DNA of 62,787 bases from a virus (lineage: Duplodnaviria; Caudoviricetes): positions 1 to 62,787 of IMG/VR virus record IMGVR_UViG_3300035672_000002; one strand, 5' to 3'. Positions 10,948 through 39,933 of this stretch are shown in pieces; the stretch's first letter is position 1, and every line of letters begins with the position of its first letter. The notes below the pieces were generated by a model that did no database searches, had not been told where the DNA came from, and worked only from the letters and a program-made list of their open reading frames with translations. The position numbers and the translations under genes are program-made.

Positions 10948-11358
10948 TCACACAATCGCTCCTGATACTCCGATACTGTGCTTGAGTCTCAGTTCTCGTT
11001 CGACCTTCCAGCGGAAAGACATAGGAGTCTGACGTAGCTCAATAATCAGGTCACGGTCTGCTGTCCAATCTCGTGTGTTTAGGGACGTGTTGATCTGTTG
11101 AGTTCTTATGCTCCACGAGACGAGCATGATGATCCCTCGAAACCACACAAAAAACTTAGGTTCCCTGAAGCCGGTGACGGCATACACACCTAGCCGATCG
11201 CTGTCTTCGAGGCCATCAGCAAACGTCCACACTCGATCACATAGATGGATATAATCCTTCAATGTCAACTCTATCCCATAGCGTTCCTTACATCGCTTCA
11301 TGGCATGGTTCCGCTGTCGAATACGGAGGCCGGCTCTAGTTCGCCTAATCTTTATCAT
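10948..11358 (-). CDS. Hypothetical protein
   Basis: HAMKRCKERYG motif; coupled to the polymerase stop. Confidence 0.6.
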   Translation of the reverse strand: MIKIRRTRAGLRIRQRNHAMKRCKERYGIELTLKDYIHLCDRVWTFADGLEDSDRLGVYAVTGFREPKFFVWFRGIIMLVSWSIRTQQINTSLNTRDWTADRDLIIELRQTPMSFRWKVERELRLKHSIGVSGAIV

Positions 11359-14345
11359 TTACACTCTGACCATCTTTTTGCAGTCTTCCACTCCGCCAGA
11401 ATCGGCACCTTCAACTTCATCACTCCCGTCATCGCCTCCACAATCCTCTTTGCTAACCGTTCCTCCCCTCCCACCTTCACCTGGCTGACAACTTCGTCAT
11501 GCACCGTCAGTAGAGGATCACAGTCCCACCCGCTCTTCCGCACCTCCGGATAGACTTCGTCCATCAGCACCGGACACGACATCCGCATGATCTCCGCCGC
11601 CGTACCCTGCACCGGAGCATTGACCGCCATCCGTTCCGCTTCCATCCTCACGCCGTCAAGATCACTATGGACCCCCGGCAGATACCGTCTCCACCCCATT
11701 AGCGTTTCAACGTACCCGTACCTCCGTGCCTTCGAACACTGCTCGTCCATGAAGTCTTCGATCCCCGGATACGCGACCTTGAGGTACGCGTCGATATACG
11801 TCTGTGTCTCCTCTACTGTGACTTCAATCCCTTCGAGGCGCAACTCAGCCCTCAACCTCATGGCACCTCCGCCGTACAGGATGAGGAACGTGATCCTTTT
11901 CGCGATCGTCCTCTGCTTCTTCGTCACGCGCTCGATCGTCGTCCTGAAGATGTGTGACGCGGTAATAATGTGGACGTCGACTCCCGACTTGATGCCGGCG
12001 ATCAGGTTCTTGTCTCCACAGAGATGCGCCATCACCCGCACTTCGATCTGCGAGAGGTCTACTGATACGAGCGAATAACCATCAGGTGCAGCGAAGGCGC
12101 CGCGGACCAGCATCCCGAGGTCAGAACGTGCTGGGCAGTTGCCGGTCACCATCGTCTTCCCGTTCCGACGTACTAGCAGATATGAGGATGGAACGGAGCA
12201 GCAATACACCTTCCCCCGTTCACTCTCTTCTACCTTCCGATTCGTTGTCAGCGAATAATTCCGGTGCGTTACATCCACCTGCCAACTGATGGATCCTCCA
12301 CCCGATACGTACTTTCGTACGTTCGCCCGCACTCCACTGAGCGTGAACAGCGTAGCGATCACGTCTGCATTATGCTTATGCTTAGATGCGTAGTGATTCT
12401 TACGTGTCCAGCACCCGTCCCAGAACATCACTTCTGCGAGGATCACATCGATCTGCCCGCGCGACAAAGCTAAAAAGAAGCTCCAGTTGAAGAGTTTCTG
12501 CGGACCTAGAACGGCGTACTGGCGTTTCGTGATTACACCGGCTTGGATGTAAAAACGTGAAGCCCCTCCGATTCGCAGCGTCTCGCGATGAGGCACGTTG
12601 CAGGATGCTAGCAGTGCTCGGAAACGCTCAATCTTCCGCAGTTTCTTGGATGTGAAGTCAGCTCGTTGATTTGACGCCCAACTACCATCGGCCTGCATCG
12701 CCACCAGAAGTCGGAGTTCATCATCAGACCACGGCACCCCATCCCCGCCTGCGTAATTTCCTGCGTTCAGCTGTCGCCAATCCTCGGGATAGTCCTGTGC
12801 ATCGATTACACGCCGTTCACCCGTCTTCCGGTGCTCGATCAGGCAGCGATGAGTCGGGGTTACTTGGAGGTCAATGTGCTCACTGTGGATACGGATGAGA
12901 TTATCAGTCTTCCTCACGTAGTCCGTGGGAACAACGAATTCTACGACTCCGTCTTCGCGCCATTGCGCGACGTGAATTTCTCTACTGAGTTCATCGAAGC
13001 GTGTCCACCCTTCGTACGTCAACACCTCAGTATCGCCCGAAAAGCAGTTCTGAAGATTCGGGTTAGCCGAAGACAGTCGGTTGGTTTCTGTCCTAGTGGA
13101 CTTGAACGTCGTGTGTATTCTGCTGTTCTTGTCGACCATGCGTGGCAACGCGAGCGTGTACGTCCCTCGCAACTTCATCCTCTCTCTGTGGTCCGTGATG
13201 TTCCCTAGGATCGTCAGTGCCCGTCTCGTGCGCTTCGAGTCCTCCATCGCGGCCACTTGCAGCTTCAGATCCTCTAACACCTTGTCCTGTGTACTCGCGT
13301 CACCCGTCTTCGTCTCTTTGACGATCGGGAGATTGAGTTCATCGAACAGTAGCTCCGCAACCTGCTTCGGGCTCGCAGGGTTGACGTAGTGTCCGACTGT
13401 CTGTTGCAGTTGGTAGAGGATCTGATCGCACTCTACCTCTAACCGCGCATCTAGCTTCCTTGCGTACGGCACATCGAAGTACGTCCCGACTTCCATCATC
13501 CGGACAAGCAGGGGGATGGTGTCGCGGTCGATCTCGTAGATCCGTGTCAGCCCTTCTGCTTCGAGTTGCTGTTTCAGTATAGGATATATCCGCATAGTTC
13601 CGTCTGCATCCTCTGCGGAATAGGTAACTGCCGCGGACTGCGGTACAACGTCGTCCAGTGTCACCTCAGGCATCGGACCGATGGCGTCCTCGATCTTCAC
13701 CCGGTAGTCGTAGTCGACCTGTTTCATCCACCACGCACGCAGACCCGTAGCTTTACGATCTTCCCCGGCTGACGCTTCATTTTCTACTGTGTCGTCGTCA
13801 ACATCTTCCTCGTTTGACGCATCGTCAACATGTTGGCTATCCTTAGTATAGGTAGTAGAGGTTACGACTAGCCGGCGTAGAGCAGTACGGACCCGCGTCC
13901 CGATCTTCTGGCCGCGTCTGACCTTCACTTCCCCGTTGACATACTCCAGATACTCGTCAGGTGGTGGCCACGACGTACCGTCGCCATCGCACTCGTCACA
14001 CGTCACCGGCCGCGGAGACAGACGCACACCGCGCGCCCCGATGGGCTCTACGATCATCGATCCGTCTCCGCTACATGCAGAGCACTTGAAGGTCAGGATG
14101 CGTCGCAGGTAGTCAGCGGCGAGCTGACGATCGGCCTCCCGTGTGACCTCGACGTACGACTGACGCTTCCGTCCGTTGTAGCGACGTTCGAGCGGTTTGA
14201 GACCCTGTGGGATGAGACGGAGGACGTACGACATGACCATCGTGTCCTCGAAGGTGATCCGACTCATCAGCTCTTCGGACGTGACGTCGAAGAGTTCTGC
14301 AAGGATGGGGATATCGTGGGCAGCGTTATGGAGAATAATATGCAC
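11355..14345 (-). CDS. polA: DNA polymerase family A, C-terminal part (ExoII/III plus polymerase) with intein
   Basis: HNAAHD (ExoII), YSAEDA (ExoIII), RLSSANPNLQN, DLSQIEVR (motif A), RTIAKRITFLILYG (motif B), TVHDEV (motif C). Confidence 0.95.
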   Translation of the reverse strand: MHIILHNAAHDIPILAELFDVTSEELMSRITFEDTMVMSYVLRLIPQGLKPLERRYNGRKRQSYVEVTREADRQLAADYLRRILTFKCSACSGDGSMIVEPIGARGVRLSPRPVTCDECDGDGTSWPPPDEYLEYVNGEVKVRRGQKIGTRVRTALRRLVVTSTTYTKDSQHVDDASNEEDVDDDTVENEASAGEDRKATGLRAWWMKQVDYDYRVKIEDAIGPMPEVTLDDVVPQSAAVTYSAEDADGTMRIYPILKQQLEAEGLTRIYEIDRDTIPLLVRMMEVGTYFDVPYARKLDARLEVECDQILYQLQQTVGHYVNPASPKQVAELLFDELNLPIVKETKTGDASTQDKVLEDLKLQVAAMEDSKRTRRALTILGNITDHRERMKLRGTYTLALPRMVDKNSRIHTTFKSTRTETNRLSSANPNLQNCFSGDTEVLTYEGWTRFDELSREIHVAQWREDGVVEFVVPTDYVRKTDNLIRIHSEHIDLQVTPTHRCLIEHRKTGERRVIDAQDYPEDWRQLNAGNYAGGDGVPWSDDELRLLVAMQADGSWASNQRADFTSKKLRKIERFRALLASCNVPHRETLRIGGASRFYIQAGVITKRQYAVLGPQKLFNWSFFLALSRGQIDVILAEVMFWDGCWTRKNHYASKHKHNADVIATLFTLSGVRANVRKYVSGGGSISWQVDVTHRNYSLTTNRKVEESERGKVYCCSVPSSYLLVRRNGKTMVTGNCPARSDLGMLVRGAFAAPDGYSLVSVDLSQIEVRVMAHLCGDKNLIAGIKSGVDVHIITASHIFRTTIERVTKKQRTIAKRITFLILYGGGAMRLRAELRLEGIEVTVEETQTYIDAYLKVAYPGIEDFMDEQCSKARRYGYVETLMGWRRYLPGVHSDLDGVRMEAERMAVNAPVQGTAAEIMRMSCPVLMDEVYPEVRKSGWDCDPLLTVHDEVVSQVKVGGEERLAKRIVEAMTGVMKLKVPILAEWKTAKRWSECK
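12138..13046 (-). mobile_element. Intein (303 aa) with LAGLIDADG-like endonuclease region in polA
   Basis: Starts CFSGDTEVLT after NPNLQN; VTPTH block B; AMQADG and MFWDG motifs; ends VRRNGKTMVTGN with Cys+1. Confidence 0.9.
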
Positions 14346-14363
14346 GGAATTAATTCTCTACAA

Positions 14364-14897
14364 CTACTGGAGAAGTTCCGATCTTACCTGCGTCAGTAGT
14401 TGCCCGAGTACATTCTGCCCTTTACCCCGGAACATTCCCCAATAGACATCTCCCCAATAATTCCCTTCGATCATAATGGTTCCGTCAGTGGCAGTCAGTA
14501 ATCCTTTGTAAGGATGATCGCGGAACTTCAATCGCAGTAACTCCAGCATTACGCTTCTTTTGATCTGATCCCAATCAGGCCGGATCGTTAGACGACGGCC
14601 CATGCGTTTCGCGTCGCCCGGTGTACGGCAAGCCTGTATTAGGGCTGCTTCTCTATCGCTCAGCGTCTTTGCTGCTTGATATGCATGCTCCACTGTGGGA
14701 TAGATATTGCCCTCATAGGCGATTGACACGGGGGCGAAGTTTGAAAGCCATCGGTACTCGCGTGAGATATCGATGAAGTAGTTCAGCGCATGATCGCGGA
14801 CACTGAGATAGATTCTAAACTCAGTAGCAGTGTCCTTAATCCCTACAGTGAGTTGAGCCTCACTATTACTGTACGTAAATAGAGTTACTGTACTCAT
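14364..14897 (-). CDS. NADAR family protein
   Basis: LSNF...YPTVEHAYQAAK...AKRMG...W...M...LRLKF...EGN.WGDVYWG...GQNVLG.LL. Confidence 0.92.
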   Translation of the reverse strand: MSTVTLFTYSNSEAQLTVGIKDTATEFRIYLSVRDHALNYFIDISREYRWLSNFAPVSIAYEGNIYPTVEHAYQAAKTLSDREAALIQACRTPGDAKRMGRRLTIRPDWDQIKRSVMLELLRLKFRDHPYKGLLTATDGTIMIEGNYWGDVYWGMFRGKGQNVLGQLLTQVRSELLQ

Positions 14898-15100
14898 CGG
14901 AACAGTTGCTCCTTCATCCCCACTGCCACCTTCAGTACTCGTTTCTGCCTTTTGAAGCAGCGCCAGTGCTCGAGTTCTTCTTCAGGTGGTTTCACATCGA
15001 AAGGCCCACCGTTCGGCTGATAGTAGTGAATTTTCTCGCTATAGCCGATGAATCGTCCACAGATCTCACAACGTAGGGGTTTAGTCTTCCGTTTAGCCAT
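14894..15100 (-). CDS. Small zinc-binding protein
   Basis: CEICG...HWRC; overlaps both neighbours. Confidence 0.65.
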   Translation of the reverse strand: MAKRKTKPLRCEICGRFIGYSEKIHYYQPNGGPFDVKPPEEELEHWRCFKRQKRVLKVAVGMKEQLFR

Positions 15101-15941
15101 TCAGTAGTTGTTCCTTCATCGACTGTATCGTCCGCTTGTTCGTCTTCCTCACGACTCCAGCACTCCCTGCGAACTGACTGAATGACAACCCCCACACCCT
15201 CCCCGCCAGTCCTTCAGTATCAACAGCCACCGGGAGACTCTTCACCAGTTTGATACTGCTACGCGGTTCATAATAGTCAGGATCAGGATAGATGTCTCGC
15301 GGGGTGACGCACGGCAACGTTCCACGGACGTACTTCCCGAGCGTCATGAAGTCTGAGTAGATTACTGGTTGTTGCTCTGGACTGTGGAGGCCGGCTGCCG
15401 GATGATAGCAAGGCACGCACGTGAAATGCGCTATACGAACCAAGGACTCGGTCCTGACGTCGGCGAGTAGGCGTGATGGACCCTCTCCACGCCCTCGATC
15501 CAACGCCCGCCAGTTCGCCGTGGCATATGGGAAACCGTGGCACGATTCCATGTCCGTAAAAATACTGCGACCAAGCAACCAACGAGAAGCCACAGCACCC
15601 ACCCCGACGATGAACGTCGGACGAACTCTTTCAATCTCACCTATCAGCTCTCCCTCGTCCCGCTTGATGCCCGCAGCGGTCGGTTTCACGTTCCCACTCT
15701 TCGCTCTCGTCGTCGGCCGATGCTTCACCAGATTCGTCAGCCAGCAGTCTCGGAGTTCGATCCCCGCCTGCCGTGCGTATCTCGTGAGTTCCTTCCCGGC
15801 CTTCCCGACCCAACATTTCCGCATCTGCTCTTCCTGCACTCCGGGTGCCTCGCCGACGAACATGACGTCAGCATCAGGACGTCCGCGGCCTGGAACGTAG
15901 GGTCCGAGTGGAGCCGGAGATGTAGACGACTTCAACGTCAA
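15093..15941 (-). CDS. Family-4-like uracil-DNA glycosylase domain fused to the ExoI part of the DNA polymerase (N-terminal part)
   Basis: FVGEAPG..EE, VGKAG, TNLVK.RP and YHPAA motifs, then VAVDTEG (ExoI DxE). Confidence 0.85.
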   Translation of the reverse strand: MTLKSSTSPAPLGPYVPGRGRPDADVMFVGEAPGVQEEQMRKCWVGKAGKELTRYARQAGIELRDCWLTNLVKHRPTTRAKSGNVKPTAAGIKRDEGELIGEIERVRPTFIVGVGAVASRWLLGRSIFTDMESCHGFPYATANWRALDRGRGEGPSRLLADVRTESLVRIAHFTCVPCYHPAAGLHSPEQQPVIYSDFMTLGKYVRGTLPCVTPRDIYPDPDYYEPRSSIKLVKSLPVAVDTEGLAGRVWGLSFSQFAGSAGVVRKTNKRTIQSMKEQLLNG

Positions 15942-16432
15942 TGTCCTTTCTCCATCCCCTTCATCGGACTGCCGCTGAACTTCTGATGCGGATGATGTGC
16001 GCTCTGCTGATCGAGCTTCGACTTCGACTCCATCACAACCGCCGCCTCTTCCGCCTCTTCATACCCCGCTTCCCGCTCGCATTGCTTTACAAATAGTTCG
16101 GTCATCGCCGCTGTAATCAGTATCGCTTCCCCGAGTTCAGTCACACCCATCTCCGTCAGCGCAGTTTCCATCTTGTCAACGATCCCGTCGAGCCGCGTCA
16201 GTTTCTCTTCCGCCTCATCCTCGGGAATCTCCGACGACTTCAGTATCAACCGCGTCAACTTATCCAACGACATCTCCGCGGAGATCAAGACGGCATGCGA
16301 CGGGTTCTTCGCTGCGAGGAGACGTTGCAGAAACTGAACGTTCGAACCTTCACAGTGCTTACACATACTGACTACTCCGTCGCCTCGATCACGTATGACG
16401 AGATGTTCATCCCTAGAGGCACCACGATCCAT
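15938..16432 (-). CDS. Hypothetical protein
   Basis: ORF filling the operon; start uncertain. Confidence 0.55.
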   Translation of the reverse strand: MDRGASRDEHLVIRDRGDGVVSMCKHCEGSNVQFLQRLLAAKNPSHAVLISAEMSLDKLTRLILKSSEIPEDEAEEKLTRLDGIVDKMETALTEMGVTELGEAILITAAMTELFVKQCEREAGYEEAEEAAVVMESKSKLDQQSAHHPHQKFSGSPMKGMEKGH

Positions 16433-16608
16433 TCGTGCGCTCCGGCTGAAGACATGACGTCGTAGAGGACAGCGCCCGCAGGTACTCTCGCAAGATCGTC
16501 GACGGGGAGCTGCGGCCCCTCGTACGGTTTGACACTGAAAATGTTCGCTACGACGAGTGTCACCGGATTACCTGCAAGCGTCTTGAACTTGTCAATTGTC
16601 TTCGCCAC
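16372..16608 (-). CDS. Hypothetical protein
   Basis: GGAGG RBS before GTG. Confidence 0.6.
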   Translation of the reverse strand: MAKTIDKFKTLAGNPVTLVVANIFSVKPYEGPQLPVDDLARVPAGAVLYDVMSSAGAHEWIVVPLGMNISSYVIEATE

Positions 16609-39625: not shown

Positions 39626-39933
39626 GGGGGCGTACTGGTTTCGACGGAATAGTACGACCTCGATTAGCACGCCGGTAAGGAGCGACCGCAACAGCCCAAA
39701 AACGCACAAACGCCAACACTGATAATGTCGTGTACGCGAACTTCGGCGAGGGTGTCTCCGACGCCCCGACCCAGATGAGCGAACCCACTCCGTGGGCGCC
39801 CATGGCAATCGCAGCATAAGTAGTTCTCACTTTCCGCCCAACAGCAGACAGCCACTGCGCAAAGGGTAAGCGTGTAAAGCAGATCGAGGAAGTCTAGTTT
39901 CGGACGCGGGTTCGACTCCCGCCGCCTCCACCA
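39626..39933 (+). ncRNA. ssrA: tmRNA (308 nt); tag reading frame 39712-39819 ANTDNVVYANFGEGVSDAPTQMSEPTPWAPMAIAA*
   Basis: 5' GGGGGCG pairs with CGCCUCC-A-CCA including G3:U; GGTTTCGAC 5' motif; GGACGCGGGTTCGACTCCCGC T-arm; GCACGC/GCGTGT and CCTCGAT/ATCGAGG helix 2; tag ends in AA. Confidence 0.95.

Follow-up and report, generated by a model that had tools for sequence, protein, structure and literature searches.

Split replicative enzymes of phages

Several replicative enzymes of phages are encoded by two genes. Gene 43 of Aeromonas phages 25 and 44RR is divided into 43A and 43B, and nrdA of phage Aeh1 is split by mobE (PMC2988022, citing Petrov et al. 2010). A further locus of this kind was analysed here in a complete virus record of 62,787 bp with direct terminal repeats (IMG/VR record IMGVR_UViG_3300035672_000002), the whole length of which is called the window. 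It encodes a family A DNA polymerase that is fused to a uracil-DNA glycosylase (UDG) domain and is cut inside its 3'-5' exonuclease, with a NADAR gene and a 68-residue open reading frame (ORF) lying in the seam. The analysis makes it probable that this replicative polymerase is made as two polypeptides, which would form a composite proofreading site, and that the cargo in the seam is recent.

The Aeromonas and Aeh1 loci share with the window an essential replication enzyme that is contiguous in relatives and is encoded by two cistrons, whose products must reassemble according to the available text of the review and would do so here. An extra gene in the seam is also common to them. The same text raises the idea of a seg endonuclease invading an already split gene, which is the order of events proposed for the window. 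The enzymes differ, 43A/43B being a B-family polymerase and nrdA a ribonucleotide reductase, whereas the window contains a UDG-fused family A polymerase in which the cut separates ExoI from ExoII within the active-site fold of the exonuclease. In addition, the Aeh1 nrdA/mobE type has a homing endonuclease in the seam, whereas neither seam ORF of the window gave an HNH, GIY-YIG or LAGLIDADG match in Pfam or PHROGs.

The B-family DNAP-N and DNAP-C of PhiKZ form a stable 1:1 core complex, as determined by cryo-EM (PMC13648687). They resemble the window in having two polymerase subunits but belong to another polymerase family, and seam cargo is not mentioned in the accessible part of that report. 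Split family A polymerases were reported from the OM43 phages MEP401 and MEP402 (PMC10580990) and from an uncultured cyanophage lineage (bioRxiv 10.1101/325100). These are also encoded by two genes; in the MEP401-like phages, the two genes enclose a small ORF of no known function, and the split is shared by a group of genomes. Unlike the window, no UDG domain is mentioned and no NADAR in the seam is reported in the available text of either source. The DNA polymerase of Microcystis phage Mel-JY34 (PP438425.1, 810 amino acids) has the same order of UDG-like, 3'-5' exonuclease and family A domains; however, it is encoded by one gene and is only about 26% identical to the window halves.

Thus, split phage polymerases are known, and the window differs in the cut through the exonuclease fold of a UDG-fused PolA, in the persistence of this cut across a clade and in the non-endonuclease cargo. 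A limited search of the literature on split phage DNA polymerases, as far as its text was available, yielded no description of a cut that separates ExoI from ExoII, which is no proof of absence.

Overall organization of the locus

Four ORFs followed each other on the minus strand, with the two polymerase ORFs, the N-half and the C-half, 747 nucleotides (nt) apart:

15093..15941, minus strand: N-half, family-4-like UDG domain (Pfam UDG PF03167, 7.9e-21, residues 17-188) followed by the first strands and helix of the 3'-5' exonuclease with ExoI; 282 amino acids, TTG start, TAA stop
15210..15230, minus strand: ExoI motif VAVDTEG, residues 238-244 of the N-half
14894..15100, minus strand: 68-residue Cys/His ORF, CEIC...HWRC, no Pfam or PHROG match
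14364..14897, minus strand: NADAR ORF, 177 amino acids; PF08719, 1.7e-22, profile positions 1-162 of 163; phrog_1017
14346..14363, minus strand: AT-rich spacer of 18 nt, TTG TAG AGA ATT AAT TCC, from the NADAR TAG to the C-half GTG
11355..14345, minus strand: C-half, with ExoII, a zinc-finger insertion, ExoIII and the family A polymerase domain, the last carrying an intein-like insert; 996 amino acids, starting GTG-CAT
14313..14330, minus strand: ExoII motif HNAAHD, residues 6-11 of the C-half
13602..13622, minus strand: ExoIII motif YSAEDAD, residues 242-248 of the C-half

The UDG domain of the N-half contained the strings GEAPG and HPAAGLH and was assigned by its profile match to the UDG superfamily as a family-4-like member. 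The C-half matched DNA_pol_A (PF00476) at 4e-99, and the strings DLSQIEVR, KRITFLILYG and VHDE in its polymerase domain are taken here to be motifs A, B and C of family A polymerases. Pfam DNA_pol_A_exo1 matched the C-half at profile positions 78-131 of 173 only, so that the ExoI part is absent from it. The motifs of such exonucleases are D-x-E in ExoI, x-x-x-D in ExoII and Y-x3-D in ExoIII. As assigned from the sequence, the carboxylates of a DnaQ-type exonuclease are all present across the two ORFs, with D241 and E243 on the N-half and D11, Y242 and D246 on the C-half. A family A polymerase with its exonuclease is therefore not encoded as a single polypeptide, and the relatives were likewise called as two proteins.

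The cistrons were tightly packed. The stop codon of the N-half overlapped the ATG of the 68-residue ORF (ATGGCTAA), the stop codon of the latter overlapped the ATG of the NADAR ORF (ATGA), and only the 18-nt spacer of the insert lay outside the ORFs. The GTG of the C-half was in frame with the NADAR ORF, 18 nt after its TAG, and no Shine-Dalgarno-like (GGAG-like) site was present ahead of it in the spacer. When positions 13800-16600 were scanned, four promoter-like sites were detected against 1.4 expected, none of them convincing, and no minus-strand terminator was found inside the cassette. Because of this tight packing, the four cistrons most likely lie on one mRNA and would be translationally coupled, and reinitiation at the GTG is a plausible start for the C-half.

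Much of this anatomy had been described in the original prediction, and the sequence bore it out: ExoI at the end of the UDG ORF, ExoII opening the next polymerase ORF, an insert of about 750 nt with the 68-residue and NADAR ORFs, a C-half that has no clear ribosome-binding site and is in frame with the NADAR ORF past TAG TTG TAG, and AAT codons on both sides of the insert.

The insertion between ExoII and ExoIII contained two CxxCxGxG motifs, CSACSGDG and CDECDGDG, at 13977-14084 (minus strand). Their Cys and Gly columns showed little or no variation across 16 relatives, split as well as fused, and the pair resembles a DnaJ-type zinc finger.

Position and age of the cut

The N-half query was run against 1.84 billion representative proteins, and both fused and split relatives were returned. 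When the first 432 residues of the C-half were used as the query, seven separate C-halves began at the same residue as that of the window, with the sequence M-[H/K/R]-[L/I]-[I/L]-L-H. They were 688-693 amino acids long and lacked a UDG domain, with identities of 82-90% (P0153-P0156), 66% (P0157), 59% (P0158) and 50% (P0160); six of them came from contigs of 49-68 kb, namely P0153 (49,282 nt), P0154 (65,610), P0155 (63,044), P0157 (62,409), P0158 (65,687) and P0160 (68,471), and P0156 from a contig of 14.8 kb. The C-half P0161 (46%) started 14 residues earlier. The N-halves P0002 (84% identical), P0003 (79%) and P0389, and the fragment P0038, ended within two residues of the window N-half. P0002 and P0155 were both on a contig of 63,044 nt, and P0003 and P0156 were both on a contig of 14,788 nt; from these equal sizes, they probably represent N- and C-half pairs of the same contigs.

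In the fused relatives (P0004, P0005, P0159, P0162 and others), the ExoI strand, a helix ending in QL, and ExoII formed an unbroken series. The alignment with these uninterrupted homologues, which the original prediction had proposed, fixed the junction. The distance from QL to the H-N or H-H of ExoII was 7-9 residues in the fused relatives and 8 residues when the window halves were juxtaposed; therefore, judged from the alignment, the split loses no residues and falls within the loop that joins the helix to the following strand. One open frame ran from the UDG part through ExoII in all 22 of the more distant loci holding both parts (L001 and L003-L025 without L005 and L019, which end at contig edges; 19 distinct contigs, three being counted twice). 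No match to the NADAR or the 68-residue ORF was detected in the 24 distant loci searched.

In the tree, six split sequences including the window formed a clade with support of 100/99. Nine split sequences were placed in a 97/95 clade together with three fused ones (P0159, P0005 and P0162), the order inside this clade being left open. Relatives without a close homologue of the NADAR or the 68-residue ORF are cut at the same residue, and therefore the cassette was very probably not the cause of the split. As part of the reading as a whole, it is likely that the cut is common to a clade of related soil phages, is old and predates the cassette. A split through the proofreading site has persisted down to about 50% identity. 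A practical lesson of the locus is that a gene lying within a split gene is not necessarily the cause of the split.

No DNA match to 11355-15941 was found among GenBank phages in near or distant searches, no close relative was found in IMG/VR by single-protein scans with the N-half, the start of the C-half, P0157 and P0160, and two scans of GTDB genome contigs gave no match. In alignment-based scans, the best relatives had at most 36% identity in IMG/VR and at most 48% in JGI metagenomes, the latter on a 1.2-kb contig.

Other irregularities were seen in some relatives. The N-half P0003 (396 amino acids) had a low-complexity insertion of about 150 residues in its UDG domain (residues about 140-285), which was absent from the window N-half and may represent a further inserted element that the gene caller did not recognize and translated as part of the protein. 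Two distant IMG/VR relatives, L016 (7953-12177) and L008 (7758-11544), were cut elsewhere, between the exonuclease and polymerase domains. The seam of L016 contained three small ORFs, one encoding a DUF4326 protein (1.7e-14), and that of L008 contained two overlapping open frames of at least 80 amino acids on that strand.

A probable composite proofreading site

Residues D241, T242 and E243 of the N-half were identical in all of the 15 aligned relatives, whether split or fused, and residues H6, H10, D11, Y242 and D246 of the C-half were invariant in 16 of 16. A complex model of N-half residues 195-282 with C-half residues 1-300 gave an interface score (ipSAE) of 0.67 (0.65-0.68 between runs), compared with 0.00 for the best of three controls; the mark used for this score was attained by 58 of 80 solved complexes and by 2 of 110 mismatched pairs. 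The runs shared at least 89% of their contacts, and the predicted local distance difference test (pLDDT) value of the partner was at least 74. In the model, the ExoI strand (residues 237-263) contacted residues 1-6, 10-11 and 243-252 of the C-half, which belong to its first strand and to ExoIII. The exonuclease fold may thus be rebuilt from both chains, although the pass of the model shows likeness of fold rather than binding and may stem from resemblance to solved single-chain exonucleases.

The conserved split, the conserved catalytic residues and a complex model that passed its controls together argue for a polymerase of two chains, as the original prediction had offered among its possibilities. 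Chain N (282 amino acids) would supply the UDG-like domain together with the ExoI strand, on which two of the four catalytic carboxylates lie. Chain C (996 amino acids before removal of the intein-like insert) would begin at the next β-strand and carry ExoII, ExoIII and the polymerase domain, and the two chains would dock by completing one DnaQ-type exonuclease fold, with two carboxylates coming from each. Such a locus would provide a natural system in which to study the folding of a DnaQ-type exonuclease from two chains and to ask if proofreading responds to subunit supply.

Several points weigh against this interpretation. The GTG of the C-half has no Shine-Dalgarno-like site, though many genes of this phage have one. 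The pairing of N- and C-halves in the relatives was taken from equal contig sizes, the contigs themselves being known through their proteins, and the seams of these close relatives, which are represented by proteins, could hold other cargo or a mobile element. The tree may or may not reflect a single origin of the split: two changes are needed, although only one is forced by the starred branches. The search for NADAR homologues covered proteins of 97-310 amino acids sharing five-residue words with the query, and the best 120 of 1090 matches were considered. Finally, the evidence is from DNA, and the sole sequencing run found to contain the stretch, a DNA run labelled soil metagenome, may be its source sample, and no RNA run was listed as containing it.

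Alternative explanations

In one alternative, the halves stay apart, so that the N-half would be a UDG-like protein only, the C-half would lack proofreading and the ExoI segment would be a relic. A free C-half does keep a complete polymerase domain, and the association of the halves is a model prediction. However, the last 80 residues of the N-half were its best conserved part, with the invariant columns mostly at 204-265 and the DTE residues invariant in split and fused proteins alike, and the ExoII and ExoIII residues were invariant in the split C-halves. The exonuclease fold of the C-half is also incomplete without the central ExoI strand, which the complex model places there. We therefore regard a failure of the halves to reassemble as unlikely.

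The original prediction had described the cassette as interrupting one gene, which would mean that the NADAR and 68-residue ORFs themselves cut an intact polymerase gene in the window lineage. The cassette lies exactly at the cut, its composition is foreign and the more distant relatives are uninterrupted there. This cause is nevertheless very unlikely, because the same residue marks the cut in seven relatives with identities as low as 50%, and the finding that would refute it according to the prediction itself, a split in relatives without the insert, was obtained for relatives without a close homologue of either ORF. For the cut relatives, no close NADAR homologue was found on a contig of the same size among the best 120 of 1090 matches, and the 68-residue ORF had no homologue among proteins of 37-119 amino acids. 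The duplicated tail of the N-half further suggests that the 68-residue ORF entered an N-half that already ended there.

A single chain could also be restored by splicing, by a ribosomal bypass of about 750 nt, by read-through of two TAG codons to give a NADAR-polymerase fusion, or by protein trans-splicing. The NADAR ORF and the C-half are in frame with TAG TTG TAG and 12 nt between them, and the insert is flanked by AAT codons and by the two arms of a 10-nt inverted repeat (14360-14369 and 15102-15111). The original prediction had placed the repeat correctly, but at least one exact 10-nt inverted pair occurred in 204 of 300 shuffles of the 1.5-kb region (mean 1.6), and its role as a boundary signal was rejected as being at chance level. 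An in-frame arrangement is expected by chance in one case of three. The proposed rejoining by splicing or bypass found no support either: no intron family was found with Rfam when 11000-16500 was searched for intron cores at E values up to 10, or when gathering scores were applied to the whole window. Two ORFs whose start and stop codons overlap occupy the 747 nt, with only 18 nt of the insert outside them, and a group I or group II intron was rejected. Recoding of TAG was rejected as well; TAG was an ordinary stop, ending 18 of 85 long ORFs (TGA 50, TAA 17), and a tRNA scan of the window detected no tRNA gene and hence no suppressor.

A bypass of the T4 gene 60 type has a short untranslated gap of 50 nt, matched codons for take-off and landing, and a stop codon after take-off; the AAT codons agree with it, but a gap of about 750 nt with two ORFs that have their own starts does not. 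We know of no precedent for skipping about 750 nt in which two ORFs are translated. A split intein, as in the 'fractured gene' arrangement (PMC2677866, in its accessible text), was rejected because the N-half ends LLNG and the C-half starts VHII, with no extra residues, no Cys, Ser or Thr nucleophile and no room for intein halves. The C-halves of the relatives were also called as separate proteins from the same residue, and rejoining in one chain is extremely improbable.

A chimeric contig or a misjoin at a repeat is hardly credible. The window is metagenome-derived and the only run containing it may be its own source, but in another assembly of that run, a Logan contig of 9,763 nt spanned positions 11000-15628 without a single difference or joint. 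The contigs of that run placed at 80% likeness showed neither a joint nor a form without the insert, and the split recurs in at least seven other contigs from other sources.

The cargo and its proposed arrival

Positions 14346-15100 (755 nt) had a GC content of 48.7%, and no 750-nt stretch of the genome, whose GC content is 57%, was lower (mean 56.9%, standard deviation 2.6). No homologue of the 68-residue ORF was found among proteins of 37-119 amino acids; in the ESM Atlas, it gave only unnamed viral clusters of 69 amino acids (feature score 0.95) and weak structural matches under the bar for naming. The closest NADAR homologue among the best 120 of 1090 matches was 64% identical, and none of these 120 was on a contig sized like that of any polymerase relative. 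As judged from the sequence, and with the same good probability as the reading to which it belongs, the 68-residue and NADAR ORFs are recent arrivals specific to the phage of the window.

A direct repeat of 15 nt, which is not mentioned in the original prediction, was present at the edges of the 68-residue ORF:

15106..15120, minus strand: left copy, encoding the MKEQL tail of the N-half
14904..14918, minus strand: right copy, with one mismatch, at the 3' end of the 68-residue ORF

Both copies encode MKEQL in frame at the 3' ends of their ORFs, and a repeat as good as this one occurred in 9 of 300 shuffles. The final seven residues of the 68-residue ORF, MKEQLFR, were identical to the N-half tail of P0003. 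These features suggest at least two recombination events, one of which would have duplicated the 3' tail of the N-half. In the proposed order, an N-half already ending in MKEQLFR-stop, with the ATG of the next gene overlapping its stop codon, would later have gained about 200 nt with the 68-residue ORF, and this insertion would have duplicated the tail; the order and number of the steps are tentative. The cargo would thus have settled in the seam, where an insertion disrupts nothing. The seam may be viewed as a safe insertion site for accessory genes, which bears on how counter-defence genes can be taken up harmlessly near essential genes.

A third copy of the 9-10-nt word of the inverted repeat was found in direct orientation near the 3' end of the NADAR ORF (14393-14402, QLL codons), besides those at 15101-15110 and 14361-14369. 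The threefold word may represent microhomology used in recombination, or chance.

The NADAR ORF

Two motifs were located in the NADAR ORF:

14667-14693, minus strand: VEHAYQAAK, the Glu...Lys motif
14460-14477, minus strand: IMIEGN, with the last-strand Glu

With a profile match over the whole domain and both the Glu and the Lys, for which residue roles are described in PMC11257639, the ORF is assigned by its sequence to the NADAR superfamily. The Glu and Lys of VEHAYQAAK are spaced by seven residues, the same as the mutated E36 and K43 of AdfN (PMC11257639). According to the accessible text of that report, AdfN and T4 gp30.3 resemble the window protein in being stand-alone phage NADARs with a C-terminal helix.

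The last strand distinguishes the families, with Glu in YbiA, Asp in the DarT1-linked family and His in the gp30.3-type phage NADARs (PMC11125620). The closest solved relative of the window protein was E. coli YbiA (2b3w, 9.2e-21), 8bau being far more distant (4.4e-6), and the Glu of IMIEGN aligned with the last-strand Glu of E. coli YbiA. Thus, in contrast to the gp30.3-type and DarT1-linked proteins, the window NADAR is, by its sequence, a member of the YbiA subfamily, and assignment as a DarT1-associated antitoxin (BC4488/DarG1-like) was rejected since the residue is Glu rather than Asp and no DarT adjoins it.

As far as the source text was available, YbiA proteins are active in vitro on ADP-ribosyl-guanosine in DNA, which they hydrolyse; the E. 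coli protein hydrolysed ADP-ribosyl-guanosine in vitro but gave no protection against DarT1 in cells, and a myxobacterial YbiA is the antitoxin of the ADP-ribosyltransferase YarT (PMC11125620); the window NADAR is likewise of the YbiA type found in this YbiA-YarT toxin-antitoxin pair. Several unrelated phage NADARs counter DarTG1, and only one phage NADAR distantly related to the YbiA group was noted in the available part of the report on AdfN (PMC11257639). A role of the window protein against a host DNA ADP-ribosyltransferase is a fair guess. The original prediction had called it an embedded counter-defence gene linked to reversal of DarT1; a NADAR is indeed encoded, but since it belongs to the YbiA type, we only infer counter-defence, anti-DarT1 activity not being established for this protein.

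The first 45 residues of the NADAR ORF (14763-14897, minus strand) had no counterpart in most homologues, which were about 140 amino acids long and covered 72-79% of the query. This was the most AT-rich part of the cassette, with a GC content of 41.5%.

A YbiA-type NADAR lies between ExoI and ExoII here, a DUF4326 protein lies in the seam of L016, and the DUF4326 domain was found fused to NADAR, Macro and replication proteins in a comparative study (PMC7824862, in its accessible text). From the first two observations, seams of split phage polymerase genes could be imagined as landing pads for genes of ADP-ribose or NAD conflict, which would be co-expressed with the replisome and perhaps work beside it. 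This generalization is speculative and unlikely to hold. If it were true, NADAR would act at the fork to free the template of ADP-ribosylated guanines, and an exonuclease in two chains would be tolerated and perhaps regulated rather than a scar.

Intein-like insertions and other features

An in-frame insertion of 303 amino acids was located in the polymerase domain of the C-half:

12138..13046, minus strand: intein-like insertion inside the NLQN motif, starting with C, ending with N and followed by C

It matched PHROG families that bear inteins, and Pfam LAGLIDADG_3 was below the threshold (0.0096); no sequence match was found in the PDB. The insertion was absent from the C-halves of eight aligned relatives, in which the consensus runs NLQNIPAR. 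The fused relative P0004 (1256 amino acids) contained an HNH-domain intein (PF13392, PF14890) that was located only a few residues ahead of the insertion site in the window, and therefore the polymerase of this group has been invaded repeatedly.

Elsewhere in the genome, a tmRNA gene was detected at 39626-39933 on the plus strand (Rfam RF00023, 99.5 bits against a gathering score of 47, E value 1.1e-37, full model), in agreement with ARAGORN.

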